A DNA stretch of 64,000 nt, from assembly GCA_038062295.1 (NCBI GenBank), contig JBBTXL010000008.1:1430-65429 (forward strand), read 5' to 3'. This DNA is from Patescibacteria group bacterium (lineage in GTDB: Bacteria > Patescibacteriota > Minisyncoccia > GWC2-36-17 > WO2-46-25). The notes under the pieces were generated by a model. The model had not been told where the DNA came from. It worked only from the letters and a program-made list of their open reading frames with translations, and did no database searches. Positions 15,889 through 47,249 of this stretch are shown here, one piece after another (position 1 is the stretch's first letter; each line of letters starts with the position of its first letter). The position numbers and the translations under genes were made by a program.

Positions 15889-15890
15889 AG

Positions 15891-16497: not shown

Positions 16498-16509
16498 ATT
16501 TTTATCATG

Positions 16510-16964: not shown

Positions 16965-17017
16965 ATCATTTTTTTAGTTATTTTATTAATTGCGACCTTG
17001 ATGATTTTTTTAAAAAA

Positions 17018-17053: not shown

Positions 17054-17096
17054 TAAAATTTTGTTTGAATATTAGACTAAACCAGACTAAATCGGA

Positions 17097-18035
17097 CTAC
17101 TCTGGATTGTTTTTTATATGAGCAACCTCCAACTGCTTTAAAAATAGAGGTATTTTTACACCAATTTTTACTAAATCTTCTTTTGATATTTCGCCCCCAT
17201 TGTAAACCACCACAGACTTTCCTCTTTTAGGAAAGAAAGCTTTTAATATTTCGGCCTTAAAGCCAAGTTCATTAAGTATTTTTGTAAAGCTTTTATTCTT
17301 TCTTAGTGTATCAGGGATGTCTTGGTTTCTAATTTTTGTATTTTTTGGTTGCGAACGAACATATTCAAAAAATTCAAAGTTAATTCCTACAGCGTGTGGT
17401 TTTCCTATAAGGTATTCGTTAACCAGTATTTTTCGATCTTTAACTGAAATAACGAATTTTGATGGTTCTTGTTTTGTTTGTATTTCTTGAGCAGTTGATG
17501 GGTTAATTTTGAGCTTTTTATCAATCAAATCCTGCACTCGGCGCAATCCATCTAACGAACTTACTTTTAGAAAAACATAACTTTTCAACTCTTCTTTTGA
17601 TGGCAAATAATCGGGTAATTCATTTTCATCAAAAGCTGTAACGCTTGAAGGAAATACAACTCTTGTTCTCTGATACTCTTTTATTTGGTAGAGTAATTCT
17701 GCGTTTGTAACTTTGACACTGTCTACTCTATTCAGCACACCGCTTATATCGTCTGAATATACCTGCTCATTTTCAAACTTTTGTAAAGATATTTTGACCA
17801 CTTCTGTCAATCTATTAACGGGCTGAAGCTGTAAGAAATCAAGAGTAATCTTAATAACTTTTTGAGCAATTTTAAGATTTTCTTGAGTGAGTTTTTCCCA
17901 ATCAAAAATATCCGTATGTAAACTGGAGGGTTTTATCTTTTTCTCTCCATCTCTTTTGAAACCGTCCTCATAACGGCGAAACAGTTTATCAAACTTCGAC
18001 TGGACTATTTCTATGCGAAACAATTTATTACTCAT
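17097..18035 (-). CDS. hypothetical protein (element); start taken at MSNKLF with ATGAGTAA overlap of upstream stop
   Basis: ORF track 17097..18158; internal Met 42 forms overlapping stop/start with 18028..18261 ORF. Confidence 0.5.
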   Translation of the reverse strand: MSNKLFRIEIVQSKFDKLFRRYEDGFKRDGEKKIKPSSLHTDIFDWEKLTQENLKIAQKVIKITLDFLQLQPVNRLTEVVKISLQKFENEQVYSDDISGVLNRVDSVKVTNAELLYQIKEYQRTRVVFPSSVTAFDENELPDYLPSKEELKSYVFLKVSSLDGLRRVQDLIDKKLKINPSTAQEIQTKQEPSKFVISVKDRKILVNEYLIGKPHAVGINFEFFEYVRSQPKNTKIRNQDIPDTLRKNKSFTKILNELGFKAEILKAFFPKRGKSVVVYNGGEISKEDLVKIGVKIPLFLKQLEVAHIKNNPE

Positions 18036-18261
18036 ATTCCCATGTGCCACCTCTATTTTGTATTTTAATAGCACCCCATTCTTCCAGCTTCTCAAGTATT
18101 GCCGCCTTATCTGTGGCTGATGGAGAACTACCAGTGGTGTCAAAAAAACCAAAATCAACCCAATATAAAATTGGGTTGCCTTTTTTGGTATACAGCGACC
18201 TTTCCTTGATTTGTCTTAAAACATACCAGACATTCTGATTAAATTTTTCTTCTGGGGTCAT
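18028..18261 (-). CDS. hypothetical small protein (element)
   Basis: ORF track; translational coupling with downstream gene. Confidence 0.4.
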   Translation of the reverse strand: MTPEEKFNQNVWYVLRQIKERSLYTKKGNPILYWVDFGFFDTTGSSPSATDKAAILEKLEEWGAIKIQNRGGTWEYE

Positions 18262-18438
18262 AGTAATTTATGTTAATTTCATTGTAATTTACCTATATTC
18301 TACCATTTTTCAGCTATTTTTTCAACCTACTAAAACGTTGTGTATTTTTTGCAAATTTTAGTGGTTTATGGTATTTTATAAGCAATAATTAAGCATCGCC
18401 TAACCCTCGTGGTTTTACTACAAGGTATGGCAACAAAC

Positions 18439-18481
18439 ACGGTTCAGGTCATTAAGCTCCTAGTCAGAGCACCTGAACCGT
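18439..18481. promoter_or_regulatory. perfect 11-bp inverted repeat ACGGTTCAGGT...ACCTGAACCGT with 21-nt spacer in divergent intergenic region of the element
   Basis: seen directly; lies between the leftward operon and the rightward 18566 gene. Confidence 0.3.
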
Positions 18482-18565
18482 CATATCCGAAAGGGTATGG
18501 GTGTCGCAAGACATCGCTGGCTGGGAGCTTTGTGTCTATATTCCCACTAGCTTAGAATAATTACT

Positions 18566-21523
18566 ATGAAAATGAGAACACGATTTAGCAGGATAGCTAC
18601 TTTGACGGCATTAACCATTCTTTTGGCTGTGCCTGTTTTTGTTTTCACAGTACCATATTCATATGCGGCACAAAACATTGTTGATGGAGACTTGGTGACC
18701 GTTTCTCCTAATCCAGATATCTATATTGTCAAAATTATAGGTGTCAAAAAGTTTAAAAGGCTCATCCTCAATCCCGATATTTTCGATTCCTATGGGCATC
18801 TCAAATGGAGCAATGTAAAAATGATTGATCAGGCAACCCTTGATTTGTATAAATCTTCTGAACTTGTCATTGAAATCAATGCTGATGGGAGCATTGCCGA
18901 CCCCAAGGTATACAGAGTGGTTTCTTCGGCAAATAGCGATGTTGGCGAACGAAGCTGGTTGAATTTAACAGCTTCTGAATTTGAAGCCGCGGGGTATGAT
19001 TGGGATTCGCTTTATCATGTTAATCATAGAGAAGCATTACCTAGTTTTTACCCAACGAAAAATCCTCTCACATATCAGGATGTTTTAAAAATTAAACAAG
19101 CACCATCTCCATCTGTTCAGGTTGCATTCTCTATCGCGCTAGTTGCTCCGAATAAGATTCTGGCGGGATACGCTACTAATATTGTTATAAAAGGATTTGG
19201 TTTTAAGCAGGGCGCCAGAGTGGACTTTGGATCAGGAGCGACACAAGTACCCTACGGAGTTACGAACTCTGAGCAGATTACCGCACTTATTCCCGCAGGG
19301 ATGCCGCCGCTTACTTATAACCTTTCAATTACGAATCCTGACGGGCAGGTAGCAATTTTAAATGATGCATTAACCTTGCAAGCCTCAACCTCTCAAATTA
19401 TGAATGGTCTGACAACAAGTCAAGTATATGACCTTGTTAGTCCTTCTGTTGTGCAAATAACTAACAATTGTGATAGCTCTCTTGGTAGCGGTTTTGTTTT
19501 TGAAAATGGTGGATACATCTTAACCAATGAACACGTTGTACATGGATGCAGTGCTGTTGGAGTAAAGCTGAAAAGTGGTGTAAATCTTGTGGGAACCGTA
19601 CGTGGGACAGATGCGCTAAATGACGTAGCGGTAGTTAAAATCGACCAAAGTATTCCAACCTTGATTTTAGGTGATTCAAACCTATTTATTGATTCAACTG
19701 TATTTGTTGCCGGACATCCATCTGGTCTTACAAATGTAGTTGTTAATAGGGGTGTTATTAATTCTAGCGGACAACCATGTTTAACCTTTCCTTTGTCCTG
19801 TTCTGGCACTTGGAGTTATCTGACAACGCTTAAATTAGCAGAACATGGTAGTAGTGGAGGGGTTTTGGTGAATGATAAAGGAGAGATTGTTGGATTGCAT
19901 AGAGCAGGAACTGACTCTGTTTCTTTTGCAATACCGATAAATTTCATAAAAGGCATAATACCAACTTTAAAATCTGGAGTATCCACATACACCCCAACTC
20001 CCACACCCTCTCCAGTGCCTACATCCTCTCCAACTCCTGCAACAGTCGTCGCGTTGACTGTCACCAAAAATAGCGGTATGGCTGACGCGACCTCTTCATT
20101 GCCAACGGGCGTGAAGGGAGCGACAAACGTCAAGATCGGTTCATTCGTCTTGACTGCGGGTGCGGGCGAAGCGACATTAGTTAGCCAGATAGTCGTGAAG
20201 AACAGCGCAACCGCAGGATTGGCGTTGGGACATGACTTCCAGAACTTGACTTTGAAGAACGGTACCACCGTTATCGGTTCCCCAATCGGTTCATTGTCAA
20301 CAACGGCAAGCGCGACCTACACCCTTACGCCGTCCTCATCGATAACCATCAATGCGGGACAGCAGTATGTGGTTGACGTGTACGCGGACATCTTAACAGG
20401 ATCTGCAAATGCAGGTGTAGCGGCATATGTTGCAGTGGTATGGGACGATGTGACGGCAGTTGGGAATTCAACAAGCGCCACAGCAGGAGTGGCAACTGAT
20501 GTTATCGGACAAACAGTGTACATCTCAAATGGTGGTTCATTGGTAATCGCAGCGGCTTCAGATATGCCTGTTGCGCAGAACCGCTCAATGGGTCAGACTG
20601 GCCAAACCTTGGTGACATTCAAATTCACTACGGGCGCAAGTGAAGCAGTCAATGTTAGTAAAATCATTGTTACTAACACATTATCAGGTATCGCGATAGC
20701 GGCAACTGGCACTATCACGAACCTCGGATTGTTTAAACCTGACGGGACGCAGGTGGGTACCTACATTTATTATATGACAACGAATAGTGGTCAAGATGCT
20801 CTAGCGACATTCAATGGCCTTACCTTGAATCTTCCGAGAGACACGGCAACGGTCTTGACCTTGAAAGGTGATGTGAACGGCTACCCGAACGGAGTTTCAG
20901 GTAGTGCTCACACTTTCAAGATTGCTACTGTAGCTGATGTTACTGCAACCGGCGCAACCGGCGGAACAACGATTATGGCAAGCGGTCCTTCTATTACAGG
21001 AAACGCGCAGACTGTGTATCGTTCAGAGTTGACTGTAGCAAACGCTATGTCCAACTCCTCGGGTGGTCAGGGTACCGATCAGGTCATAGGTAAATACAGA
21101 TTTACCAATACTTCGGCCGGCAACTACACCATCGCGGTATCTGATATTAATCTTGGATTGACAGGTTCAATTATTAACACTAACGTATCGCGGTACGTTA
21201 CCTTGAAACGGGATTCCGTCAGCGGCGCGACTGTTGCCAAGAAAGTGTTTAAAAACACAAACCTCACAGATATAACAAGTTGGGATCTTTCAGGAACTGA
21301 TAGCAATGAAGTTGCATTCATTCCGTTCACGATTGATTCAGCGGGTGGTACTGGTTACGTTGATTTCTACATATTAGCAGACACTAATGACGCGGCATCA
21401 ACTAGAACCATTTCAACAACCCTTGGAGGTGGCAGTAATGTCATTACATGGGGAGATGGTGTCACAACAGGCATTACTTCGTTGGATAACAAGCCCATCC
21501 CAGGAGCGACCATTACCTACTAA
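18566..21523 (+). CDS. secreted trypsin-like (S1/HtrA-type) serine protease fused to Thr/Ser-rich repetitive surface domain; C-terminal ~480 aa paralogous to the gene at 2..1963
   Basis: signal peptide; protease triad context NEHVVHGC, LNDVAVVKID, EHGSSGGVLVNDKGEIVGLH; C-terminal region SLPTGVKGATNVKIGSFVLTAG...SSSITINAGQQYVVDV...GATITY matches first gene. Confidence 0.85.
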   Translation: MKMRTRFSRIATLTALTILLAVPVFVFTVPYSYAAQNIVDGDLVTVSPNPDIYIVKIIGVKKFKRLILNPDIFDSYGHLKWSNVKMIDQATLDLYKSSELVIEINADGSIADPKVYRVVSSANSDVGERSWLNLTASEFEAAGYDWDSLYHVNHREALPSFYPTKNPLTYQDVLKIKQAPSPSVQVAFSIALVAPNKILAGYATNIVIKGFGFKQGARVDFGSGATQVPYGVTNSEQITALIPAGMPPLTYNLSITNPDGQVAILNDALTLQASTSQIMNGLTTSQVYDLVSPSVVQITNNCDSSLGSGFVFENGGYILTNEHVVHGCSAVGVKLKSGVNLVGTVRGTDALNDVAVVKIDQSIPTLILGDSNLFIDSTVFVAGHPSGLTNVVVNRGVINSSGQPCLTFPLSCSGTWSYLTTLKLAEHGSSGGVLVNDKGEIVGLHRAGTDSVSFAIPINFIKGIIPTLKSGVSTYTPTPTPSPVPTSSPTPATVVALTVTKNSGMADATSSLPTGVKGATNVKIGSFVLTAGAGEATLVSQIVVKNSATAGLALGHDFQNLTLKNGTTVIGSPIGSLSTTASATYTLTPSSSITINAGQQYVVDVYADILTGSANAGVAAYVAVVWDDVTAVGNSTSATAGVATDVIGQTVYISNGGSLVIAAASDMPVAQNRSMGQTGQTLVTFKFTTGASEAVNVSKIIVTNTLSGIAIAATGTITNLGLFKPDGTQVGTYIYYMTTNSGQDALATFNGLTLNLPRDTATVLTLKGDVNGYPNGVSGSAHTFKIATVADVTATGATGGTTIMASGPSITGNAQTVYRSELTVANAMSNSSGGQGTDQVIGKYRFTNTSAGNYTIAVSDINLGLTGSIINTNVSRYVTLKRDSVSGATVAKKVFKNTNLTDITSWDLSGTDSNEVAFIPFTIDSAGGTGYVDFYILADTNDAASTRTISTTLGGGSNVITWGDGVTTGITSLDNKPIPGATITY

Positions 21524-21526
21524 ACC

Positions 21527-21778
21527 ATGAAAAAACTTATCGCCTCTACCGCATTTCTATTTTTATTCATAGCTCTGTTTTATTTTTCCAACCCGGCAGA
21601 AGCAGCCACAAGAACTAGAGGGTACTACAAACCAAGTACTGGTACTTATGTACAGCCGTATTACCGTTCCTCTTCGAACAGCTCAAGATGGGATAACTAT
21701 TCAACGCGAGGCAATTACAATCCCTACACGGGTAAAAAGGGTTATATCAGTCCTTACAAGAGTTATCGGTTTAGATAA
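21527..21778 (+). CDS. small secreted Tyr-rich protein (element)
   Basis: signal peptide MKKLIASTAFLFLFIALFYFSNPAEA then YYKPSTGTYVQPYYRSSS...NPYTGKKGYISPYKSY. Confidence 0.5.
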   Translation: MKKLIASTAFLFLFIALFYFSNPAEAATRTRGYYKPSTGTYVQPYYRSSSNSSRWDNYSTRGNYNPYTGKKGYISPYKSYRFR

Positions 21779-21780
21779 TT

Positions 21781-22131
21781 ATGATCAACAAACTCAACAA
21801 AGTTTTAATCTTATCATGGGCATTGCTTTTTTTAGCGATGCCTATTTTTGTCTCAGCCCATCGTTCCGGTTGTCATCGTTGGCACTCTTGCCCATCTGAT
21901 ACTGGTTCGTATGTCTGTGGTGATTTAGGGCATCCTTGCACGTACCCAACCTATCCCAAGTCTGGTGGTGTTATTTTGCCAGAGAGTGTTGCAACTTTAC
22001 CACAACAACCTCACAAGAAAACCAGTGAAACAGCAAGACAAAAACGGATCACCGTATTGAAAAAGCAGATTTCGGATTTGAGGTTAAAACTTCAGCAATT
22101 AGAGAGCCAACTCAAAGCGCTTGAACAATAA
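21781..22131 (+). CDS. small secreted Cys/His-rich protein with C-terminal coiled coil (element)
   Basis: signal peptide; HRSGCHRWHSCPSDTGSYVCGDLGHPC; C-terminal heptad-like KKQISDLRLKLQQLESQLKALEQ. Confidence 0.5.
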   Translation: MINKLNKVLILSWALLFLAMPIFVSAHRSGCHRWHSCPSDTGSYVCGDLGHPCTYPTYPKSGGVILPESVATLPQQPHKKTSETARQKRITVLKKQISDLRLKLQQLESQLKALEQ

Positions 22132-22212
22132 ATTAAATTGATGTAACAGATGAGTTCACCCGAGTCAAGATATTACGAGACTTTTAGCGGAGTTAGTTTT
22201 TAATCCAATAAT

Positions 22213-22386
22213 ATGGAAATAATAGGTTTAGGTCTAGTCATATTGGGACTTATTTGGACAGTAATCAGTTTTATTATCAAGGTTTTTGTCTATGCTGTTT
22301 ATTTTTTGCCATTTATTGGGTATAAGATATTAGATTTTTTAAGTTTATGGCCACACATTTGGCCACTTAACGGAGTTAGTTTTTAA
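22213..22386 (+). CDS. 57-aa small membrane protein (not in ORF track, below length cutoff)
   Basis: hand translation MEIIGLGLVILGLIWTVISFIIKVFVYAVYFLPFIGYKILDFLSLWPHIWPLNGVSF; ends inside a duplicated ~35-nt motif. Confidence 0.3.
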   Translation: MEIIGLGLVILGLIWTVISFIIKVFVYAVYFLPFIGYKILDFLSLWPHIWPLNGVSF

Positions 22387-22395
22387 CTTAATTAT

Positions 22396-22716
22396 ATGGG
22401 AAAATTTAAATTATCATTACCCATTACAATTTTATTAGCGAGTATTGTTTTAGGCGGCTTCTACTATGCGAGCGAAGCAAACAAACAAAAGTCTACTGAA
22501 AGACAACAGCGAGACGAACAGGTGGTCACCGAAAAAAACCTTTTCGACTTAAAATGGTGTTTAGCGACTGCAGAGGGTGATAGGAAGGATTTTCTAAGAT
22601 TAAACGGTCCTGATGGGCATATTGATGGCCGATATACTAATAATACAACTCTCATACAACAGGCTGAAAGACAAAAAAAGGAAGATGAGCAAAGGTGTTA
22701 TCAGTTATACAAATAA
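22396..22716 (+). CDS. small secreted protein (element)
   Basis: signal peptide MGKFKLSLPITILLASIVLGGFYYASEA; preceded by the duplicated ~35-nt motif. Confidence 0.45.
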   Translation: MGKFKLSLPITILLASIVLGGFYYASEANKQKSTERQQRDEQVVTEKNLFDLKWCLATAEGDRKDFLRLNGPDGHIDGRYTNNTTLIQQAERQKKEDEQRCYQLYK

Positions 22717-22852
22717 TTTATTTCAAAACCAAAAATGCAACCAGGACCTTGGATAGATGCAAACATCTTCGATCCTGATAGCAACGAATTTATTGATGAG
22801 GGGCTGGATGAAGATGATGCTGTTGAATTTGCTGATGAGCTATAAATAGTGA

Positions 22853-23305
22853 GTGGCAGGGTGGGGTAAAAAGGCGTATAGTGAAGTTATGCAAAATGGG
22901 TTAAAAGATAAATGGGTTGAATTTCGTGAGCAACTTGATGCTTTGGGCTACTTGATAGGGGCTGTATTGGTTGTAGGCGCAATTATTTGGGGTATCTATA
23001 GCTTGTTCGGCTGGGGTGAACGAGAAGGTGTAGTGAAGTTTGACGATTGCAGGCAAATGGTAACTCTGAAACCAGATACTTTCCAAAAATACTTCAAATC
23101 CTTTACTTGTATGTATAGGAGAACCGAAAGTGGGAGGATAATGTCGGGTGAGTGTGTCCATATTGATACTGCGGGTACACTGTTTTCAAGCAGTAATGAA
23201 TGTGATACCGCTTATATCTATGAGAAAGAGCAGGAGGGGAGTTGCACGGACCCCAAATATCCATATCTGGGTTACGATGATATGTGTCACACCAACCTGC
23301 AATGA
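22853..23305 (+). CDS. membrane-anchored Cys-rich hypothetical protein (element)
   Basis: ORF track; TM helix LGYLIGAVLVVGAIIWGIYSLFGW; six Cys in C-terminal half. Confidence 0.45.
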   Translation: MAGWGKKAYSEVMQNGLKDKWVEFREQLDALGYLIGAVLVVGAIIWGIYSLFGWGEREGVVKFDDCRQMVTLKPDTFQKYFKSFTCMYRRTESGRIMSGECVHIDTAGTLFSSSNECDTAYIYEKEQEGSCTDPKYPYLGYDDMCHTNLQ

Positions 23306-23501
23306 TACTTTTGAAACAATGAGTAGTTTGATGGGGGTCAGAAGCTCATCGCAAATGAAGGATATTTGAAATGAAACTCACTTTTGCCTTGTAGGAGAAC
23401 AGTTCTAACTTCATCCAGTGCGCGGAGCATCGAAATAAAAAATGTCCCTTTATGGGGTATTTTTTATTTCTGATATTTTAGGAAGTGGGATTCGAAGGGT
23501 A

Positions 23502-23535
23502 TTTCAAAAACAGAAACTGCTTTCTGTTTTTGAAA
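23502..23535. repeat. perfect 15-bp inverted repeat TTTCAAAAACAGAAA-ctgc-TTTCTGTTTTTGAAA ~70 nt inside the right direct repeat
   Basis: seen directly. Confidence 0.4.
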
Positions 23536-23600
23536 ACCCGGGCTCTGGAGGAGTATATTTTTCTTGTGCATATATGCACGAAAAATATGCGGGGGAAGAG

Positions 23601-23616
23601 GAATCCCACCCCCGGA
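23601..23616 (+). repeat. direct repeat copy 2 (putative attR core)
   Basis: GAATCCCACCCCCGGA identical to tRNA-Asn 3-prime end. Confidence 0.6.
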
Positions 23617-23725
23617 ACGCTTGACAAATAGCACAGAAATGTGCTTTATTTGTTTTAGAAAGTTTTCCGAAAAAGAAAACTGCATTCACAACTAAATAGG
23701 GAAGCGAGGAAAGGAGGGATGAAAA

Positions 23726-24307
23726 GTGAACGCTCTGGTCTTGGCTGGCAGTATACTTGGCATCTTAACGTACATTCCGCTGTGGAAGGGGATTAGGTCG
23801 GGTGAGGTGAACCAAAATCTATTCACCTGGATTCTGTGGGTGGCGGTGGACTTCGTTATCGCCGCGTCAGTCATTACGCAGGGCGGGAACTTTTTACTCC
23901 CGGTTGCCTATACGGTGGGGAGCGCGATAACGGCGTTTTTTATCTTCGCGTCGGAGAGCAGGGCTTCTTGGACATGGATTGAGACGGTGGTTGCGCTGCT
24001 TGTTGTAGCAAGTATGGGTGTGTGGGTTTACTCTGGCAGTAAGCTCGCCACCATCGCGAGCACCACGGCAATGATTATCGCGGGAATACCACAGCTTGTT
24101 GATGCGTGGAAGAAGCCCCGGGAAATGCCGATGCCGGTGTTCGTGAGCTACTTTATTGCCAATAGTCTCTCTGCGGCTGGCGGTAAAAACTGGTCCATTG
24201 AAGAGAGGTTTTTCCCGGTAGCATTGGCTTTTTACTGTGTGGCAATAATTTTCTGTTCGGCTCGCCGATTTTGGTTGAAAAGCGCGGTCGACGGGGTGGT
24301 GCATTAA
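23726..24307 (+). CDS. polytopic membrane protein, function unknown
   Basis: ORF track; ~6 predicted TM helices; GC content host-like. Confidence 0.55.
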   Translation: MNALVLAGSILGILTYIPLWKGIRSGEVNQNLFTWILWVAVDFVIAASVITQGGNFLLPVAYTVGSAITAFFIFASESRASWTWIETVVALLVVASMGVWVYSGSKLATIASTTAMIIAGIPQLVDAWKKPREMPMPVFVSYFIANSLSAAGGKNWSIEERFFPVALAFYCVAIIFCSARRFWLKSAVDGVVH

Positions 24308-24456
24308 GTAGTTGGGGATGGGAGAGTAAAACCGACCCGCCCCCCCCCAAAACACTCCGCCCCAATCGCCAAAGAACCCTTATGGTGCTTGGAGGCTAAA
24401 AATTCACGACCTGCATGGGAAAGTCACTGACTGTTTTCTTGATGTGATTTATATTC

Positions 24457-24786
24457 GTGCAGTTAGATCAGGATAGCTTTTTTAACAATCGAATATTGAC
24501 CAAAGAGGAGGATGACATGAACAAGAAGGTTATTGAAATGAACATTAACGATTTTGTCACTGTACGTCTCAGTTCGGAAGGCGTCAGGACCTACGAGGAT
24601 TATTTTAGCACACTGGCAAAGCGGTTGGGACGTCGAAAGGAAGATATTTATATCAAACTTGATCGGCGCCGCGGCGGGCGGGTGGAATTTCCGCTATGGA
24701 GACTGATGGAGATATTTGGTCCGAAGATTTATCATGGTGGACCAATCTTTTTCCTCAACAGCACCGTACGAATCGTTCAAAAGTGA
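24457..24786 (+). CDS. hypothetical protein (probable start at Met 24517, MNKKVIEMN)
   Basis: ORF track; low-GC region. Confidence 0.35.
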   Translation: MQLDQDSFFNNRILTKEEDDMNKKVIEMNINDFVTVRLSSEGVRTYEDYFSTLAKRLGRRKEDIYIKLDRRRGGRVEFPLWRLMEIFGPKIYHGGPIFFLNSTVRIVQK

Positions 24787-25635
24787 CCCTGGAAAAGTCC
24801 CGCGCCTAAACAGCCGGGGCTTTCTTTTATCAGGTAAGTTCCCCATCGTCCCATAAGGCGTGCCGATTTTCTTAGCCAACTCCATGCAGCTATGGTAATA
24901 TTTTTGTATGAATAAAAGGAGAGTGTTATACTCCGTTCTCGCAATAGTATTCGGGGCATGTATTGTTGCATACGGAGGGATTGATGATAGCCCCGGAGGT
25001 CAGCTACTCGGACTCCTGGTAGTTATCATCGGTATTGTAGGCGTGATAAAAAGCAAGAAGAAAATCCTCCTCTGATTTCTTTCCGGAAGATTTTAGTATC
25101 GTTGGTATTTTGATGCGGTGGAACATGAATATCATTCAGAATTACCATCACGCAACCGCATTGCCCTCAAAAAACCGGAAGCATATTTGAAACAATAACA
25201 TTCTTGACATCATAATTCGTACAGGGGCGGGGAAAACGGTGGTTTTCTTTTCCGGCGGTATCTGGTACACTCAAGGCATCATTAACTTATAGAACACACA
25301 TCTATGGCAAAAAGACGCACGGGGATAGATAAACATAAAAAATCGCATTCCCACAAAACCAAGAAGCGGTTGGAAATAAAGAGACTGATGCTCGAAGCCA
25401 AGGCACGCAGAAGAAAGCGTACATAGATACTCCTACGCTGTTCTATGGTATCATGACGGTAGATTCGTACCATTGGCTATCGTATGCGCATACTATCAAG
25501 ACAGTTTTTGACAAGAGCGTTACCATGTGTTGTGCTTTTGTTGTTTTTTGTGTTCGCGGTAGGGCTTTCCTACGCCGAGGAAAATAAGGATCCGGGCAGT
25601 TAACCCCCACTTCTCAAGCACGAGGTGTTTTTATC

Positions 25636-26748
25636 ATGCGCGATTTGTGCGCGATTCTTGCGCGATTCCCAGGAGAGCGCTATACTGGGAATATGTTCGA
25701 ACCGAAATACAATCTTACCAACTCGATCGTCCAGGCGCTTACCTCCATCGCCGAATCAAAAGCGGTCATCGAGCGCGCAAAGATCCTGCCGCAACAGGAG
25801 GTGCGGCTTCGGCGCCAGGCGTTGGTGAGGATGACGCACAGCTCGACGGCGATCGAGGGCAACCGGCTGAACGCCGGGGAAGTGGAGGCGCTTATGGCGC
25901 ACAAAAAAGTGGATGCTCCCGAACGGGAGATTCATGAGGTCAAAAATTATCTCGCGGCGCTGCGTTTTATAGAGAAATGCGTCGTAGCCGGCCGGCCAAT
26001 CAATGAAAAAGCGTTGTTGCGTATCCACGCGCTGGTAACGGCCCACACGCTTCCCAAAGAACAGAGCGGGAGATACAGAAAGGGGCTGGTGTATGTCGTG
26101 AAGCGGCGTGTTGGTTTTCCGAACGAGGTGGTATACACCGCCCCGGATGCGAGAAAAGTCCCACAGCTGTGCAGGAACATGTTGGTGTGGCTGAAAGAAA
26201 GCGCGGGACACAATATTAATCCGGTCATTGTCGCCGGCATTGTGCACCAGGAACTGGCTGCGATCCACCCCTTTACCGATGGAAACGGAAGGACGGCGCG
26301 TGCGTTCGCGACCCTGGCTCTGTACCAGCGCGGATACGATTTTCGGCGCTTGTTCGCATTGGAAGATCACTATAACCGTGATCGTCCCGCGTATTATGCG
26401 GCGATTAACATCGGAAAAAATTACGAAACAAGAATGGTCGATTTCACGCCGTGGCTCGAGTATTTTGTGGATGGTTTTCAGGAAGAGATTGATAACGTCA
26501 GGAGGCAGGTGATATCCCTTTCCCAAAAGAAGTTGAGCAACCGGGTTGATACCAGGGTGTTTCTACAGAAAGAACAGATCGAGATATTGGAGCTTCTTGA
26601 CCGGGTTGGGAGAGTAACCGCACAGGATATTATGGGCGTTCTCAAGTGTCCCAAAAGAACCGCCCAGCTCCATCTTCAGAAATTGAAAAAACTCGGGTTG
26701 CTCGGACAGGTGGGAAAAGGGCGCGCCTCTGCATATGTGATGAAGTAA
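25636..26748 (+). CDS. Fic/DOC family protein with C-terminal winged-helix domain
   Basis: canonical Fic motif HPFTDGNGRTARAF; C-terminal wHTH-like LLDRVGRVTAQDIMGVL...KLGLLGQVGKGRASAYV. Confidence 0.8.
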   Translation: MRDLCAILARFPGERYTGNMFEPKYNLTNSIVQALTSIAESKAVIERAKILPQQEVRLRRQALVRMTHSSTAIEGNRLNAGEVEALMAHKKVDAPEREIHEVKNYLAALRFIEKCVVAGRPINEKALLRIHALVTAHTLPKEQSGRYRKGLVYVVKRRVGFPNEVVYTAPDARKVPQLCRNMLVWLKESAGHNINPVIVAGIVHQELAAIHPFTDGNGRTARAFATLALYQRGYDFRRLFALEDHYNRDRPAYYAAINIGKNYETRMVDFTPWLEYFVDGFQEEIDNVRRQVISLSQKKLSNRVDTRVFLQKEQIEILELLDRVGRVTAQDIMGVLKCPKRTAQLHLQKLKKLGLLGQVGKGRASAYVMK

Positions 26749-39606: not shown

Positions 39607-40905
39607 ATGAAAAAAGTTCTCTTATCTCTCGGTGCGGTGGCGATGGTGCTGGTTGCGCTCCCCATGTTCTCCGCATTCGAGGCGCATGTTATTAACGTAA
39701 CGGCAAAGATAGAAAATGCTTTGTCGGTTCCGGTGAGCGAAATAGATTTCGGCACCGTGTTCCCGCAGGAAAAGCTGGACAAGCAGTTCGACGTTTCCCT
39801 TTCCCAATCGTTCAAGGATGAGGATAGAGTGGACGACGTGGAATATTACATTCGGCAGAAGCCCAAGTGCTGGGACGGCAACGAAACAACGCCGACCTTC
39901 GGGCGTGTGACGGAAGACGCACAGGGGAACTTTGTATGCGTGGATGAAGGGTTCACCATGCTCCCCATTTTATGCCCGTATCTTTCAAAGCATGAATTGA
40001 CGACCGACGGTACGCAACAGGAAAACGACACGGGTATCAACGCGTTCCACGGCCTACCTGGCAGTTGGACGCTCGCAACCACGCTCGCCACACAGGTAAC
40101 AGGGCGGCTTGCAAAGTCCGTGCAGGACTTTACGGACACCTGGAATGTAGATCTGCGCGTGCCATGCTTTGGTGGCCACTGTGCGCAAGACTGGGATGAT
40201 TTCGTACAGAACTCAAACCCAGCAGACTTAGAAATTGACCCGTCCGCATACATCCAGCCACAGGAAAACGAGCATAAATTGTTCGGCTGTGATCTGTGGG
40301 TAGAGGTGTATCGCATCAGTCTTGCAGGCGGCCCGCCCATCGGGTGCGAGGACGAGCTGGATTTGATGCTCGTGCTTGACCGCTCGGGGAGTATTGGGGA
40401 TACGAATATGGGCGTATTGCAAACTGCCGCAAAAGCATTTGTGGACGCACTAGGACTTGGTACGCCGGGTCCGCACGCGGGCATGGTGAGTTTTGCAAGC
40501 GGCGCCTCGCTGGATGTGCATCTGACGGATGATGCTGTGGCGGTAAAAGCAGCGATCGATTTGTTGGTTTCTTCCGGCCTTACGGCGCTTGGCGACGGCA
40601 TCAATACCGCAAAGACAGAGCTAGACAACCCCGGCGACGGCCACGATCGTCTGGATGCGGGTTCTCCCGACTACATGGTTATTATCACCGACGGCGCGCC
40701 CAACACAGGTGCGGATTCCGCAACCGCAGCGGCTGCGGCAAAAGCGGCCGGTATCACTATCTATGTGGTAGGGGTAGGCACGACGGGTGGCACGGAAACA
40801 TTCTTACGCGATACTATCGCAACCTCGCCCGCACACTACTTCAGCATCGCAAATTACGATGATCTGCAGGCGCTCCTAAGCGGATTGGTAAACTGTCCCG
40901 CATAA
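39607..40905 (+). CDS. secreted protein: conserved post-signal-peptide domain (FEAHVINVTAKIEN...) fused to C-terminal vWA/MIDAS domain; cluster member 1
   Basis: signal peptide MKKVLLSLGAVAMVLVALPMFSA; conserved Cys framework; vWA motifs DLMLVLDRSGSIG, GLTALGDGI, VIITDGAPN. Confidence 0.85.
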   Translation: MKKVLLSLGAVAMVLVALPMFSAFEAHVINVTAKIENALSVPVSEIDFGTVFPQEKLDKQFDVSLSQSFKDEDRVDDVEYYIRQKPKCWDGNETTPTFGRVTEDAQGNFVCVDEGFTMLPILCPYLSKHELTTDGTQQENDTGINAFHGLPGSWTLATTLATQVTGRLAKSVQDFTDTWNVDLRVPCFGGHCAQDWDDFVQNSNPADLEIDPSAYIQPQENEHKLFGCDLWVEVYRISLAGGPPIGCEDELDLMLVLDRSGSIGDTNMGVLQTAAKAFVDALGLGTPGPHAGMVSFASGASLDVHLTDDAVAVKAAIDLLVSSGLTALGDGINTAKTELDNPGDGHDRLDAGSPDYMVIITDGAPNTGADSATAAAAAKAAGITIYVVGVGTTGGTETFLRDTIATSPAHYFSIANYDDLQALLSGLVNCPA

Positions 40906-40908
40906 CGG

Positions 40909-42255
40909 ATGAAAAGAACATTCACCACAATTCTTTCGCTGGGCGCCATGCTCGTCATGGTGCCCATGCTTGCCGCCTACGAGGCGCATGTGTTGAATGT
41001 TATCGCGCAAATTGAGAATGGGGGAGACATCATCGTCACGCCGGGCGACCCGGTGGATTTCGGCACGGTGTTCCCCCAGGAGAAACTGGACAAACAGTTT
41101 GAGATCGCACTCTCGCAGACGTTCATCAACGATCCACAATACGACCTCTTGGAATATTCCGTCACGCAGGAACCCAAATGCTGGAACGGCAACGAGCAAG
41201 CTCCCGTGTTCGGGGAAGCGCAAATCGTGAACAACCAGTTCGTCTGTATTGACCAGGGTTTTACCTTCCTTCCTATTCTGTGTCCGTATCTCTCAAAACA
41301 TGAGCTCACGGGCGACGCGACGGGCGATACGGAGCCGGGCGAAACCCCGGGCGACCCCGTGGATGAAAACGACGGGCCGGGCATCCTCGCGTTTCATGGC
41401 GTGATAGATGTGAATGCTTGGAGCCCGCTCGTTGCTTCCTCCACCATGGAAGTCGGTGCGCTTAAAAAAACAGCCGAAGACCTTGCCGATACCTGGAATA
41501 TTGATCTCAAAGTACCGTGTTTCACGGGCCACTGCGCGCAGGACTGGGAGGACTATGTCAAAGGCATCAACCCGCAGGCAAATCCGGACGACTACATCCA
41601 GCCCCTGGAAAACGAGCACAAGCTGTTTGGCTGTAACATCCGCATCTCGGTGACCGGTAAGCCCTCTACGGTTGGTTGTCAGGGTAAGGTTGACCTCATG
41701 CTCGTACTTGACCGCTCGGGGAGTATTGACTTCACGGAGCTTGGACAACTCAAAACTGCGGCAAATGCTTTTGTGGATGCGCTTGCGCCGTCTGCAAGTA
41801 GTGTACATATTGGCCAATCAAGCTTTGCAACAACCGGCTCGCTTGATTTGCATCTTACCGACAACGCAACATCAACACATGCGGCAATTAACGCACTTAT
41901 TGCGGTCGGGCAGACCAACCTGAAATCCGGTATAGACTTTGCAAAAACGGAACTGAACAACCCCGGCGACGGGCATGACCGCACGGATGGTGACTCGCCC
42001 GACAAGATGGTTATCATCACCGACGGTGCGCCGAACAGACCGATTCCGGCAATTACCGCAGACGATGTAGCAGCAGCATCAGCAGATGCTGCGCGCGCTG
42101 CTGGTATTGAAATTTTTGCACTTGGCGTTGGGGTTTCTGCATCAACTGAAACATTTTTGAAAACCGAAATTGCCGATGATGCCGCGCATTACTATTCCGT
42201 GCTGAACTACGCGGATCTGCAAGCCGCGCTGGAACTGCTTGCCGAATGTGACTGA
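40909..42255 (+). CDS. secreted protein, same N-domain plus vWA domain; cluster member 2
   Basis: AAYEAHVLNVIAQIEN...; DLMLVLDRSGSID, VIITDGAPN; 3-nt spacing from upstream gene. Confidence 0.85.
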   Translation: MKRTFTTILSLGAMLVMVPMLAAYEAHVLNVIAQIENGGDIIVTPGDPVDFGTVFPQEKLDKQFEIALSQTFINDPQYDLLEYSVTQEPKCWNGNEQAPVFGEAQIVNNQFVCIDQGFTFLPILCPYLSKHELTGDATGDTEPGETPGDPVDENDGPGILAFHGVIDVNAWSPLVASSTMEVGALKKTAEDLADTWNIDLKVPCFTGHCAQDWEDYVKGINPQANPDDYIQPLENEHKLFGCNIRISVTGKPSTVGCQGKVDLMLVLDRSGSIDFTELGQLKTAANAFVDALAPSASSVHIGQSSFATTGSLDLHLTDNATSTHAAINALIAVGQTNLKSGIDFAKTELNNPGDGHDRTDGDSPDKMVIITDGAPNRPIPAITADDVAAASADAARAAGIEIFALGVGVSASTETFLKTEIADDAAHYYSVLNYADLQAALELLAECD

Positions 42256-42417
42256 TTGCACACACTCCCATCTTTTGGCGCAAGCGAAAAGATGGGAGTG
42301 GCCACAATCCACCCTTCGCCTCTTTCGGGGCCGCTCGACGCCTAAAGAAGTGAGGGGATGATACGCAATGGCCAGGTCGATCATCCTTAATTAGCATTAA
42401 ACAAAGATTATACGCAT

Positions 42418-43332
42418 ATGAAAAAAGTTTTACTTTCACTGGGAGCTGTTGCCTTCGTATTGGTCGCGCTCCCGATGTTCTCGGCATTTGAGGCGCATGT
42501 TATCAACGTGGTCGCAAAGATCGAGAATGCGCTTTCGGTGGATACGCGACCGATCAACTTCGGCACGGTATTCCCGCAGGAAGAACTTGAACGGCCGTTG
42601 GCGGTTCAACTTTCGCAGTCGTTTGTGGATGAGGAAAATGCCGATGATGTTCGGTACATTATTCGCCAGAAGCCGAAGTGCGGTGTAACAACCGACAATG
42701 GAACTGTATTGGTCGGCCCAACCTGGACCGGTCACGTTGTACCAACACTGGATGACCCGCAAACCACAGATGTTGATGAAAGCAAGGGTGGCACAGCTTA
42801 CACGATTGACTGTGAAAAGGATAAGCCTGCTAACTTGGAGGAAGCAACCTATGGCTTACTGCCGATGCTTTGTCAGTATATCTCGAAGCACCCGGTAGCG
42901 GCTTGCGCTGATGGGTTGGATAATGATAACGATCAGGCAATCGACGGACAGGATGTGGATTGTGCAGGCGCGACAGATGACAACGAAGGATTGCCAGGGT
43001 CTCAACCAGAAGGCGATGATGGAAGTCTGAATTCGTTCCATCAGCCGTTTTCGGTGAGTAATTCGACGGTGCAATGGAATGATGTTCATGGTCTTCTTGC
43101 AAAGTCGCTGAGCGACCGTGCAGATCTGTGGACGATTGACCTTGCGGTGCCATGCTTTGGCGGATACTGCGCACAGGATTGGGCAGACTTTGTGCACGGC
43201 ATCAATCCGGATGCAGACCCGAATGCATACACCCAGTCAATTGACAACGAACACAAGATTTTCGGTTGCAATCTCTGGATTGAAGTGACCGAAGTGAGTC
43301 GTGTTGATACAAACCCGACTGACAACCAATAG
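42418..43332 (+). CDS. secreted protein, same N-domain only (no vWA) with acidic insertion; cluster member 3
   Basis: MKKVLLSLGAVAFVLVALPMFSAFEAHVINVVAKIEN; conserved Cys framework ...VPCFGGYCAQDW...HKIFGCNLWIEV. Confidence 0.8.
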   Translation: MKKVLLSLGAVAFVLVALPMFSAFEAHVINVVAKIENALSVDTRPINFGTVFPQEELERPLAVQLSQSFVDEENADDVRYIIRQKPKCGVTTDNGTVLVGPTWTGHVVPTLDDPQTTDVDESKGGTAYTIDCEKDKPANLEEATYGLLPMLCQYISKHPVAACADGLDNDNDQAIDGQDVDCAGATDDNEGLPGSQPEGDDGSLNSFHQPFSVSNSTVQWNDVHGLLAKSLSDRADLWTIDLAVPCFGGYCAQDWADFVHGINPDADPNAYTQSIDNEHKIFGCNLWIEVTEVSRVDTNPTDNQ

Positions 43333-43420
43333 TTTGAGCTAATCTCTGAATCTCTCCGGCGGTTGCTTGTGACAACGGCCGGAGGATTGAGTGATTATTA
43401 ATTCATAAGAGGGAAAACTT

Positions 43421-43909
43421 ATGGAAAACCAATTGTACGAAGTTCAGCAAGAAACCGCTCCGCAAACGCCCGAAAAAAAGGGCTGGTGGGGAGCGCTCAA
43501 AGTGTGGGAAAAGATAGTCACCATCGTGCTTGCGCTTGTGGTGCTGTTTGCGTTTTATATCGCGCTTGACGCGAATAAATACCAAGCGACGGTGCATGTG
43601 ATAGAAGGCGAGGGGAAAGTGGGTATCAACCCCACCACCGAGCGCCTGGACTTTGGCGACCTTTCGCGTGGGACTTCCGCCGTGCGCCGCGTAACGGTGA
43701 CAAACGGCACGGCAATGCCGATGTATGTGATGGTGTGGAAAACGGGCAAAGTAAGCGAGCTGATGGACGAGAATAAAAATTACTTCACGCTCGCGCCGGG
43801 GAACGAGGAACGCCTTGAATTCACCATTTACATGCCTGCGTCGGCACAGATCGGTGCGACGCTGGATGGCCGTGTGTATTTGCTAAAAATCCCTACGTTC
43901 GGACTGTAA
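43421..43909 (+). CDS. small membrane-anchored member of the same family (N-terminal cytoplasmic tail plus TM, then ...ATVHVIEGEG... domain); cluster member 4
   Basis: LDFGDLSRGTSAVRRVTVTNGT parallels IDFGTVFPQEKLDKQFDVSLSQ of the larger members. Confidence 0.65.
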   Translation: MENQLYEVQQETAPQTPEKKGWWGALKVWEKIVTIVLALVVLFAFYIALDANKYQATVHVIEGEGKVGINPTTERLDFGDLSRGTSAVRRVTVTNGTAMPMYVMVWKTGKVSELMDENKNYFTLAPGNEERLEFTIYMPASAQIGATLDGRVYLLKIPTFGL

Positions 43910-43920
43910 CGCCCAACGCT

Positions 43921-44469
43921 ATGCTTCCCAACCCGCTTATCATTCCTTCGGGACCGCCGCAACGGAGCGCACCGGAACTGCAACAGGCGTCGGAGCGGGA
44001 ACCCGCGCCGGAGGGAAAGAAAAAAAGACCCTTCTGGAGAAAGGCGGTGAATGTCGTTGCATATATAGTCATTATCGGGGGTATTACATTCGGCTTGCCC
44101 AAAGCGCTTGCGTGGGCGCTGGATACGCCCTACCCCATGGCGACCATCACCTCGGGCTCCATGTGGCCTGCGCTCAAAGAGGGCGATTTGGTGTTCATAC
44201 AAGGCATCAAAAGCAAAAGCGACATGAGTATCGGCGATGTGGTGGTGTATCGCAACAAGGAGAATGGCACATTCGTCATTCACCGTGTGGTCGCGATGGG
44301 CGAGAAAACATTTACCACCAAGGGCGACGCCAACTTCTCGAAAGACGACCCGGTGCGGTATGAGGACGCGGTGGGCAAGGCCTACGAACTGGGGGGGTAC
44401 TACGCCCGCATTCCGTACTTGGGCATTATTACCGTGTATGCCAGCAAGCAACTAAACCATCAGCCATGA
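43921..44469 (+). CDS. SipW/Sec11-type (archaeal/ER-type) signal peptidase I
   Basis: N-terminal TM; SGSMWP (Ser box), VIHRVV (His box), TKGDAN (GDNN-like box); ~180 aa with no bacterial LepB Lys box. Confidence 0.75.
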   Translation: MLPNPLIIPSGPPQRSAPELQQASEREPAPEGKKKRPFWRKAVNVVAYIVIIGGITFGLPKALAWALDTPYPMATITSGSMWPALKEGDLVFIQGIKSKSDMSIGDVVVYRNKENGTFVIHRVVAMGEKTFTTKGDANFSKDDPVRYEDAVGKAYELGGYYARIPYLGIITVYASKQLNHQP

Positions 44470-45479
44470 AATTGTTTCCCGTCATTGTTTTTTTCGCACT
44501 TGCGTTCGCGCTCGTGAACTCCGGAATATTTCTTGGAGCGTTTGAAGCGCATGTGCTGAACGTGACGGCCGTGATAGACGACAACCCGCCGCTGTGCGAT
44601 GCGCGCTCGCTGGGGTATTGGAAGAACCACGAGGGATGTTTTAAGGGGAAAGGGGAGAGTATCTGGACGGACGAGATACACCAGGTAACTACGGAATTTG
44701 CGGGGATATTTTACGATATTACGGGAGAGCAAATTTGCAAGGCGGTGTGGATCTCTTCTTGCCCGTCGGGCAACGACCCGGATGCGCGAAGATGCAAGGC
44801 GCGTGCGATGGCGCTTGCCGTGGAGTTGAACCTTGTGTCGGGGCGTTTGCAATTGGACGCTCTGCTTGCGGGAGCGGACGACGGTTCCTCGGCCTTTGAC
44901 CATCTGGGGCTGACGGGGGCCTCCACCATCCGGCAGGCGATGATGATGATAGAAATTATCATCGGCACGCCGTCCTCCACGAGCCAACAGCTCAAAGACG
45001 CGGCGTATGTCGCCGAGCGCATATACACGTTCTATGAGTCGGAAAATCCGGATGCGCCGCGCTGTGTGTATGTCCCGCCGCCGCCCAAAGACGATTGCGA
45101 CAAAGACGGGCATCATAGCGGGAACGATTTTGGGACCGGCACGGAGCAGTTTCTTATCACTACCGGCGGCAGCCACGACGACGGGAAAGAATGCGATGAT
45201 GATACAAAAAACGATGACGACAACCATCACGACTGGTGGGACTTGCTGTCATATCCGGGTGACAATGATTTCAACAGCCAGGACAACCATGAAACCGGCG
45301 ACACAGACAGGGGAGAGCGCGGCGAGCGCGGTTCACACGACAACAACGGGACAACAACGGATGTATTCAATGCCACAACAACCGCCGATGTGTTGAACGG
45401 AACTTCAACGATAGATACCCTTGGTGGTACCGGTGACGATGACGGCCGCAAAGAACGCGGAGACAGGGAAGACCGCTGA
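44466..45479 (+). CDS. secreted protein with the same post-signal motif (FEAHVLNVTAVID) and a long Asp/His/Gly-rich acidic C-terminal tail; cluster member 5
   Basis: ATGA overlap with sipW-like gene; signal peptide; C-terminal DDGKECDDDTKNDDDNHHDWW...GDDDGRKERGDREDR. Confidence 0.7.
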   Translation: MKLFPVIVFFALAFALVNSGIFLGAFEAHVLNVTAVIDDNPPLCDARSLGYWKNHEGCFKGKGESIWTDEIHQVTTEFAGIFYDITGEQICKAVWISSCPSGNDPDARRCKARAMALAVELNLVSGRLQLDALLAGADDGSSAFDHLGLTGASTIRQAMMMIEIIIGTPSSTSQQLKDAAYVAERIYTFYESENPDAPRCVYVPPPPKDDCDKDGHHSGNDFGTGTEQFLITTGGSHDDGKECDDDTKNDDDNHHDWWDLLSYPGDNDFNSQDNHETGDTDRGERGERGSHDNNGTTTDVFNATTTADVLNGTSTIDTLGGTGDDDGRKERGDREDR

Positions 45480-45491: not shown

Positions 45492-46472
45492 CTAGATATG
45501 CTTTTGCTGCTCCATTTCGCGGAGCAGTTTTTGCATTGCATCCATCTGGTCGGGGTCGTGGATGGAAATTGCGCACGCGGACGGGTTGAGTTTTTTCAGT
45601 ATGGTGAGTCTCTTTTTTTGTTCTTTGGGTACCAGGAGATCGCTCTTACTCAAGAAAAGGTATTCTTTTTTTTGAAGGAGCTTTGGGTGATATGCGCCAA
45701 GCTCCGTGCGGATGGTTTTGTAATCGCGCGCGGGGTTGTCCGACTCTGCCGATACGAAGTGAAACAGGGTTTTGGTGCGTTCAATATGCCGCAGAAATTT
45801 TACGCCCAAACCTTTGCCCACCGATGCGCCTTCAATAATGCCCGGAATGTCGGCGAGCACCAGGTCGCCATGTACGCCTAAATTCGGTTCCAGCGTGGTG
45901 AAAGGGTAGTTGGCTACCTTGCTTCTGGCTTTGGTGAGCTCGTTGAGCATGCTCGATTTGCCGGCGTTGGGGAGGCCGATAAGTCCGATGTCGGCGATGA
46001 GTTTGAGTTCCAGGCGCAGGGTGAAGCGCTCGCCTTCCCGCCCGCGTTCACATTGTTTGGGTGAGGTGTTGATGGACGAACGGAACAAAAAATTTCCTTT
46101 TCCGCCGCCGCCGCCCCGCGCCATGGGGATGCGCTCGCCGATGGCGGTAATTTCCGCACGGTCGCTGGTGGTGAGACTATGGATAACGGTGCCAACGGGA
46201 ATTTTGATAATAAGGTCTGCGCCGTCGGTGCCGTCGTTGCACTGGATGCGGCCGTGCTTGCCGTTCTCGGCTTTCAGAACTTTTTTAAACCGGAACTGCG
46301 AAAGGGCGGACAGGTTGGAAATACCTTCCATGTACACACTGCCGCCTTTGCCGCCGGTGCCGCCGGTGGGGCCGAGTGCCAGCAGGTTCTTTTGAAACGA
46401 TACTTTGCCGTCTCCGCCGTTGCCCGCGATTATTTCTATAGTGACATCGTCTATTAACATGGAGCGGAGCAT
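45492..46472 (-). CDS. obg: GTPase Obg
   Basis: Gly-rich Obg fold GNGGDGKVSF...GGTGGKGGSV; G1 GLIGLPNAGKSS; G2 FTTLEPNLGV. Confidence 0.9.
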   Translation of the reverse strand: MLRSMLIDDVTIEIIAGNGGDGKVSFQKNLLALGPTGGTGGKGGSVYMEGISNLSALSQFRFKKVLKAENGKHGRIQCNDGTDGADLIIKIPVGTVIHSLTTSDRAEITAIGERIPMARGGGGGKGNFLFRSSINTSPKQCERGREGERFTLRLELKLIADIGLIGLPNAGKSSMLNELTKARSKVANYPFTTLEPNLGVHGDLVLADIPGIIEGASVGKGLGVKFLRHIERTKTLFHFVSAESDNPARDYKTIRTELGAYHPKLLQKKEYLFLSKSDLLVPKEQKKRLTILKKLNPSACAISIHDPDQMDAMQKLLREMEQQKHI

Positions 46473-46552
46473 ACCGCATATTGCGAAAAAAAGAAAGATG
46501 TGGTATTTTGAAGCTATTGGTATGGCACAAACTTTCTAACAGGAGGTGTGTC

Positions 46553-46753
46553 ATGGGGCAGGTTCATGATAAGAAGAAAAGCGGCAGCACACAGGGAGGC
46601 GGAGGGTCTGTTCCTGCCGCAAACCCCGAGGTTACTGCCAAGGGGAAAAAGCTCAAGGAGGATGTGAATAATCTCCTTGACGAGATTGATGATGTTCTTG
46701 AAGAGAACGCCGAAGAGTTCGTCAAGAACTATATTCAGAAAGGGGGAGAATGA
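46553..46753 (+). CDS. pup: prokaryotic ubiquitin-like protein Pup (GGE C-terminus); longer ORF from 46481 probably not used
   Basis: C-terminal LLDEIDDVLEENAEEFVKNYIQKGGE matches Pup consensus; N-terminal Gly/Ser-rich disordered region; RBS AGGAGG 6 nt upstream. Confidence 0.7.
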   Translation: MGQVHDKKKSGSTQGGGGSVPAANPEVTAKGKKLKEDVNNLLDEIDDVLEENAEEFVKNYIQKGGE

Positions 46754-46946
46754 ACTTTATTTGCACACTGTGAAAGGCGGTACCAATTCTATTTCGGTAT
46801 CCGCCTTTTCTTTTTGTTTTGGGGGGTCTTGACTTTTATTTTCAGTGTGCTATACTGCCTCAGTAAGTAGGGGTGTTCCATCTTTCGTATTTTCGTAAGA
46901 GAAAACAGGTCGTCCTACTGGTTATTTATTTAACGTTATAGTTTGT

Positions 46947-47249
46947 ATGGCAAAAAGATTGTTTGTGGGCGGTATCTCATGGGGTACTACCCAGGACGTC
47001 CTGAAGGATACATTCTCGCAGGCGGGCACCGTGGTATCGGCGACGATCATCACGGACAAGATCTCGGGTCGCTCCAAAGGTTTCGGATTCGTTGAAATGT
47101 CAACGGATGAGGAAGCCGATGCAGCGGTTGCGATGCTCAACGGCAAAGAAATTGACGGGCGCGCCATTGTGGTGAATGAAGCCCGGCCGATGGAAAGCCG
47201 TCCGCCGCGCAGAGATTTCGGTGGCGGTGACCGCCGTCCGAGATACTAA
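46947..47249 (+). CDS. RRM-type RNA-binding protein with Gly/Arg-rich tail
   Basis: RNP-2 LFVGGISW and RNP-1 KGFGFVEM. Confidence 0.85.
   Translation: MAKRLFVGGISWGTTQDVLKDTFSQAGTVVSATIITDKISGRSKGFGFVEMSTDEEADAAVAMLNGKEIDGRAIVVNEARPMESRPPRRDFGGGDRRPRY

Follow-up and report, generated by a model that had tools for sequence, protein, structure and literature searches.

The window, as we call the whole stretch of 64,000 nucleotides that was analysed, carries a short intact gene for a prokaryotic ubiquitin-like protein (Pup), situated alone between the divergently transcribed housekeeping gene obg and a downstream gene for an RNA-binding protein of the RRM type (Table 1). The pup coding sequence consists of 66 codons and a TGA stop, and its product (MGQVHDKKKSGSTQGGGGSVPAANPEVTAKGKKLKEDVNNLLDEIDDVLEENAEEFVKNYIQKGGE) has the tail FVKNYIQKGGE. 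Translation almost certainly starts at the ATG at 46553: an AGGAGG motif lies 6 nt upstream, and the public gene call gives the same product of 66 aa. The frame is open over 46481-46753 (+), counted from the first in-frame TTG, which would give a protein of 90 aa; we rejected this start at 46481 because it is the ATG that agrees with the ribosome-binding site, with the public gene call and with the HMM match over the full length. Two overlapping minus-strand ORFs (46285-46554 and 46564-46725) were likewise discarded as unsupported, the Pup match being in the plus-strand frame, where tblastn places pup at 46553-46750.

All sequence criteria place the product securely in the Pup family. It matches PF05639 (Pfam Pup) over profile positions 5-69 of 69 with 76.9 bits (E=2.4e-21; cut-off 27 bits), which is far above chance level, and TIGR03687 (NCBIfam) with 61.8 bits (cut-off 41.45 bits). 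According to Iyer et al. 2008 (PMC2588565), family members are some 50-90 residues long with G-[EQ] at the C-terminus, as a rule GGQ or GGE; the present protein has 66 residues and a GGE end, and among 124 homologues this end was counted 98 times and GGQ 26 times. Residues 41-66 are identical at 22 of 26 positions to the Pup chains of Mycobacterium tuberculosis in the structures with Mpa (3M9D, 7PX9), PafA (4BJR) and Dop (7OXY). In an AlphaFold2 single-sequence model (pTM 0.42), residues 1-24 are without secondary structure and of lower confidence, and residues 25-62 form a single helix; the product is thus predicted to be disordered with one helix and no globular ubiquitin fold, as expected of Pup. 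It deviates from the consensus at two of 25 highly conserved columns and at five of 42 moderately conserved ones, against a homologue mean of 4.5 for the latter. To judge from the sequence, then, there is no sign of decay: substitution at conserved positions is not elevated and the frame is free of frameshifts. An earlier sequence-only reading of this DNA had described a 66-aa product with the Pup signature and a GGE C-terminus, flanked by obg and an RRM protein, and had proposed a profile search with PF05639 as a check. The sequence and both profiles agree with its description of the product, the search gave the significant score quoted above, and the flanking genes are those that Pfam recognizes (GTP1_OBG, MMR_HSR1 and RRM_1). 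The identification as Pup is not new, since the NCBI annotation already names the product 'ubiquitin-like protein Pup'.

Table 1. Features of the pup region in the window, and lone pup genes on other contigs (positions with an L number are those of the locus named)
Feature	Position	Strand	Remarks
obg (GTPase ObgE)	45492..46472	-	GTP1_OBG 143 bits, MMR_HSR1 80 bits; divergent from pup; housekeeping gene
Candidate sigma-70-like promoter, TTAACA-17-CATATT	46454..46482	+	Divergent obg/pup junction, upstream of pup; consensus scan 9/12; pattern match only
Shine-Dalgarno AGGAGG	46541..46546	+	6 nt 5' of ATG; read from sequence
pup	46553..46753	+	Intact; 66 codons and TGA
Intrinsic-terminator-like hairpin GAAAGGCGGUACC...GGUAUCCGCCUUUU with CUUUUUGUUUU tract	46772..46820	+	19 nt past pup stop codon; GC-rich, then T tract
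Promoter-like TTGACT-16-TATACT of RRM gene	46829-46856	+	10/12 matches and upstream TG; strong promoter-like site
RRM-type RNA-binding protein gene	46947..47249	+	RRM_1 78.6 bits; downstream of pup
Lone pup	L116:9902-10135		Cellular metagenome contig, Nitrospiraceae-like Pup; near relA/spoT and H+-PPase
Lone pup	L125:9956-10186		Cellular metagenome contig, Nitrospiraceae-like Pup; near relA/spoT
Viral-contig pup	L091:9938-10135		IMG/VR
Phage pup	L092:9989-10195		Portal protein and ribonucleotide reductase on contig
Phage pup	L093:9962-10141		IMGVR_UViG_3300025886_001308; T4-like, Gp23 capsid; pup between uvsY and uvsW
Phage pup	L094:9803-10102		DNA polymerase/primase, helicase and exonuclease genes on contig
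Phage pup	L095:9881-10105		DNA polymerase/primase, helicase and exonuclease genes on contig

The gene has expression signals of its own. The terminator-like hairpin downstream folds with -20.2 kcal/mol (z = -3.2), a value reached by 0 of 200 shuffles; a simple terminator scan had missed it because its loop is beyond the limit of that scan. The candidate sigma-70-like site upstream is weak. From the predicted ribosome-binding site, this hairpin and the weak promoter-like site we conclude that pup forms a monocistronic unit of its own, with obg on one side and the RRM gene on the other. Its GC content at third codon positions (0.54) is somewhat under that of its neighbours (0.59-0.69).

The contig belongs to Paceibacteria-like Patescibacteria. 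The best 80 genome matches and the best 120 protein matches of the adjacent Obg are Patescibacteria or Paceibacterota wherever a phylum is named, the groups including Harrisonbacteria, Colwellbacteria and Yanofskybacteria, with identities of 54-69%. Evidently, an Obg with such low identities belongs to an isolated lineage without a sampled close relative, and the gene order of the obg region is not conserved with its relatives because even the nearest Obg is only about 66-69% identical. The same contig is present at NCBI as CAYICE010000003.1 in the metagenome-assembled genome GCA_964361915.1 ('Patescibacteria group bacterium', Hainich groundwater), and the obg-pup-RRM block is found again in two independent ENA assemblies from Hainich well H51 (0.1-um filter fraction). 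Across these three assemblies pup and both intergenic regions are identical in DNA; since, in addition, the flanking genes are Patescibacteria-like, chimeric assembly and mis-binning were rejected. The window is not a verbatim copy of CAYICE010000003.1: the two differ by 4 single bases in 20.2 kb (window 36553-56753, compared with L001), none of them in pup or its intergenic regions, and window positions 1-14519 differ from L009 by 3 single bases in 14.5 kb.

Several other features of this stretch deserve mention in their own right. An island of low GC content (36-48% versus ca. 55% elsewhere) extends over 13150-26000 and starts at a gene for tRNA-Asn (13153-13225). Encoded on it are a large serine recombinase (13186-14844, minus strand), a Fic protein (25636-26748) and, immediately downstream of a LOOT RNA (18397-18515), a Trypsin_2 protein of 985 aa (18566-21523); the island looks like an integrated mobile element. 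Between 2093 and 8739 lie three tandem paralogues of 808, 685 and 716 aa, each with a Wzy_C/O-antigen-ligase domain and two of them also with C-terminal TPR repeats. An operon-like run at 39607-45479 encodes a tandem pair of VWA-domain proteins, two proteins that match nothing in Pfam (304 and 162 aa), a signal peptidase of the S26/S24 type (SipW-like) and a low-complexity protein of 337 aa, and may be a secreted-fibre or pilin-processing module. Upstream of the window, the contig encodes a ClpB/ClpC-type double-AAA+ chaperone of 877 aa (L009:1-2415), the sole unfoldase-like gene seen on it.

The enzymes with which Pup normally works were sought in several ways. Among 46 scanned ORFs of the window, which include all plausible large genes, Pfam recognized no Pup_ligase, Proteasome or Mpa-type ATPase domain. 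The tblastn and HMM searches and the Pfam-marked public gene calls extend over 82 kb, from 29.6 to 111.3 kb on the contig of 118.9 kb, and in this range no PafA/Dop, 20S proteasome or Mpa was found. Six-frame tblastn with Mpa, Dop, PrcB, PrcA and PafA of a canonical Nitrospirota locus matched pup alone. In six-frame profile-HMM searches the best PafA/Dop value was E = 2.4, on which we also rejected a divergent PafA among the Pfam-less ORFs; PrcA gave nothing, PrcB a single chance match (E = 0.83), and the Mpa profile matched the Clp protein only as a generic AAA+ ATPase (E = 0.0014). PF00227, the profile of the 20S subunits, had no match in the 82 kb. Within this range, therefore, pup is neither adjacent to a PafA/Dop homologue nor linked to 20S subunits and a Mpa/ARC ATPase. 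The sequence-only reading had noted that no ligase or depupylase gene is visible in the window, that pup lies outside the dop-pup-prcBA-pafA context and that the lineage is not actinobacterial: Pfam and the two six-frame searches agree with the first point, the 82 kb free of enzyme genes with the second, and the matches of Obg with the third.

Such isolation goes against the description of pup as a gene found invariably beside a PafA homologue (Iyer et al. 2008, PMC2588565). We surveyed the neighbourhoods of pup in 80 metagenome loci and 16 viral loci, many of which are canonical. In the ordinary cellular contigs L116, L125, L007/L008 and L146, however, pup occurs without PafA/Dop, proteasome or Mpa genes within 10 kb on either side, and the rule of 2008 is therefore not general. 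Adjacency to PafA/Dop is a contextual and not a sequence-defining feature, and it fails for other genuine pup genes as well; because pup is unlinked in ordinary cellular contigs too, its absence from a neighbourhood is weak evidence of absence from a genome. Full-length lone Pup genes with a GGE or GGQ end were also present on IMG/VR contigs that are clearly those of phages (Table 1). When 2.9 million viral contigs were scanned for motifs, no relative of PafA/Dop came up; the scan used two exact motifs from a 16-sequence PafA/Dop alignment, which divergent enzymes could escape. Presumably the phages bearing Pup rely on the ligase of their host, and in view of these finds it is a realistic alternative that the lone Pup of the window, too, is served by the ligase of a host. 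Our literature search found neither a published description of a phage-encoded Pup nor any work linking Pup or pupylation with Patescibacteria. The sole 'phage' match in GenBank, MT835496.1 (L187, 40624-46716; 'Bacteriophage sp.', unverified, from human faeces), was rejected as a phage Pup: it carries a high-GC ORF for an actinobacterial-type ARC-Dop fusion, then pup, then pafA, and probably is host DNA or a misclassified contig.

As to the origin of the gene, the closest homologues of its product are of the Nitrospirota type, at no more than 75% identity. In the best 120 of 3095 homologues every organism-named one except the query is from Nitrospirota, Manganitrophaceae or NC10, and the C-terminal half is almost invariant. 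The best match (72% identity) is encoded inside a canonical mpa-dop-pup-prcB-prcA-pafA locus (L004, GCA_041643055.1), the PafA of which groups with Nitrospirota PafA at 74-77% identity; a search for a Patescibacteria PafA returned Nitrospirota proteins alone, at identities of at least 74%. Over the last 26 codons, the gene differs from that of its closest homologue by 11 synonymous changes and 1 conservative replacement. The best 80 obg loci of Patescibacteria contain neither pup nor its enzyme genes within 10 kb on either side; in L040, the sole related locus that shares the divergent arrangement, a gap of 158 bp that contains no pup separates obg from the RRM gene. Taken together, the Nitrospirota-type homologues, the canonical donor-like locus and the related obg loci without pup make it likely that the gene was acquired horizontally from a Nitrospirota-like donor, by insertion at the obg/RRM junction. 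In the Hainich aquifer Patescibacteria and Nitrospirota are consistently found together (PMC8672522), and interphylum transfers into Patescibacteria are documented (PMC12455944). The databases compared include metagenomes of the same aquifer, and even so no donor-like sequence was found above 75% identity at the protein level (ca. 15 billion proteins) or above 82% at the DNA level (100 loci compared); the transfer is therefore probably not recent. Selection on pup after the transfer is inseparable from that in the donor lineage, since the insertion is not shared by any relative and the recipient lineage is without close relatives.

Our preferred reading, to which we would give roughly two chances in five, is that of a functional Nitrospirota-type Pup, horizontally acquired, with its ligase encoded elsewhere in the genome. 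An isolated Paceibacteria-like lineage would have gained pup by horizontal transfer, and the gene would have entered the space between the divergently oriented obg and RRM genes as a monocistronic unit complete in itself. Its product would be a mostly disordered tag of 66 aa whose helix-forming C-terminal segment and GGE end are what a PafA-type ligase needs, and such a ligase would attach the terminal glutamate of Pup to lysines of substrate proteins; with the GGE end, no prior deamidation by Dop should be needed. The genome would encode the ligase elsewhere, and perhaps also Dop, Mpa and the 20S proteasome, as presumably happens where pup is unlinked in other organisms. Several points weigh against enzymes elsewhere. 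PafA/Dop, proteasome and Mpa genes are missing from 82 kb, the adjacency rule of 2008 speaks against a distant ligase, our literature search gave nothing on pupylation in Patescibacteria, and a five-gene pupylation system would be costly for a genome of probably about 1 Mb. Moreover, transfer of a whole operon would leave pup inside that operon, and a lone, self-contained pup fits the acquisition of a single gene better.

A reading that we consider unlikely, although it fares best among the alternatives, is that of a true orphan in a genome without PafA: the ultra-small, probably host-dependent cell would make a Pup that works on the pupylation enzymes of a partner from the Nitrospirota or Actinobacteria. 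Either the PafA of this partner would conjugate it, or it would be a competitor for PafA, Dop or Mpa of the partner. The lone GGE or GGQ Pups of the viral contigs L092-L095, which presumably act in this same manner, and the viral scan without a PafA/Dop relative agree with it, as do the single-gene, self-contained nature of pup in a streamlined genome, the full conservation of the enzyme-binding segment and the presence of both phyla at the site. However, the Pup lacks a signal peptide, and a way of delivery is not apparent; phage genes are expressed in the host cytoplasm, and those of an epibiont are not. Most Hainich Patescibacteria, furthermore, appeared to be free-living (PMC8672522), and it is the 0.1-um filter fraction that yielded the contigs; nor does the viral scan, with its two exact motifs, speak for PafA enzymes of divergent sequence. 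That a ligation-ready Pup taps or jams the pupylation/proteasome system of such a partner from a genome without PafA, paralleling the phage Pups, is rather improbable.

It is also doubtful that pup is a passenger, a single gene picked up horizontally that has no present use and is intact since there was too little time for decay. Its absence from the best 80 related obg loci, the lack of partner enzymes within 82 kb, the precedents for interphylum transfer cited above and its GC3 of 0.54 next to neighbours at 0.59-0.69 would all suit such a gene. Against it, the transfer is unlikely to be recent, given that no donor exceeds 75% protein or 82% DNA identity, and despite this divergence the gene has no frameshift, has kept its ribosome-binding site and terminator and shows no elevated substitution at conserved positions, in a streamlined genome of the kind that sheds useless DNA fast. 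Very improbable, finally, is a non-conjugative role in which the Pup helix binds an endogenous partner as regulator or adaptor, e.g. a ClpB/ClpC-like AAA+ unfoldase, without ligation to lysine: a double-AAA+ protein of this type is encoded on the same contig and Pup becomes folded when it is bound to a coiled-coil AAA+ protein such as Mpa (3M9D), but nothing specific speaks for it, the Mpa profile gives the Clp protein a generic match only, and the strictly kept GGE end and PafA/Dop-binding residues are a requirement of ligation beyond mere binding.

By the current view, pupylation belongs to Actinobacteria and Nitrospirota and has reached other groups through sporadic transfers; pup normally lies beside its ligase gene. 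The present gene is a genuine Pup in an unusual lineage and an unusual genomic context. If the enzymes are encoded elsewhere in the genome, the pupylation pathway reaches into the streamlined candidate phyla radiation; should they merely lie on another contig, the case would be an ordinary footnote to horizontal transfer. If the genome is without PafA, on the other hand, a tag gene would be useful without a ligase of its own, a reading that the lone Pups of phages make concrete. A lone Pup of this kind would be the bacterial counterpart of the ubiquitin or ubiquitin mimics encoded by viruses and pathogens, and Pup mimicry would be a recurrent strategy among parasites of pupylating hosts.

Among known systems, UBact, reportedly described by Lehmann et al. 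in 2017, is said to be a small tag in Pup-like proteasome loci of Gram-negative phyla and to occur also in some Parcubacteria candidate phyla. It is a sequence family distinct from Pup and is found inside enzyme loci. The protein of the window gave no match to it: a scan of NCBIfam at E <= 1, in which the UBact model was presumably included, returned only TIGR03687 and a spurious 12-bit match to gltX. With the unlinked cellular pup genes (L116, L125, L007/L008 and L146) the present gene shares the lack of PafA/Dop, proteasome and Mpa genes within 10 kb on either side; these come, however, from larger genomes outside the Patescibacteria and from clades where these enzymes are frequent and presumably encoded elsewhere, and their contexts are unrelated to obg and RRM. 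The lone Pups of phages (L091-L095) resemble it in being single genes with a GGE or GGQ end in a carrier apparently without PafA/Dop, but they are expressed inside the host cell and are more divergent (47-68% identity). The nearest likeness is to the Nitrospirota-type Pup of L004, which also has 66 aa, the GGE end and the motif ANPEV..KGKK.KED, with 72% identity overall and 25 of 26 identical residues at the C-terminus; the first 20 residues of the present protein (MGQVHDKKKSGSTQGGGGSV) are unique to it, and its gene is a lone one, flanked by obg and the RRM gene and not by dop and prcB. Pup of M. tuberculosis (Rv2111c; 3M9D, 4BJR, 7OXY, 7PX9) belongs to the same family and is likewise disordered with a helix-forming C-terminal half, which for the protein of the window is a prediction of the model. 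Its gene is part of a dop-pup-prcBA locus, whereas the present one lies outside any such locus, and its GGQ end needs deamidation by Dop, whereas the GGE end of the present protein could be ligated directly. The segment bound by Mpa, PafA and Dop is common to both with the 22 identities in 26 residues given above. Of the two possibilities that the sequence-only reading had offered, enzymes encoded elsewhere or a different use, either may hold; a disordered protein that is no more than Pup-like is not favoured, this segment being essentially canonical.
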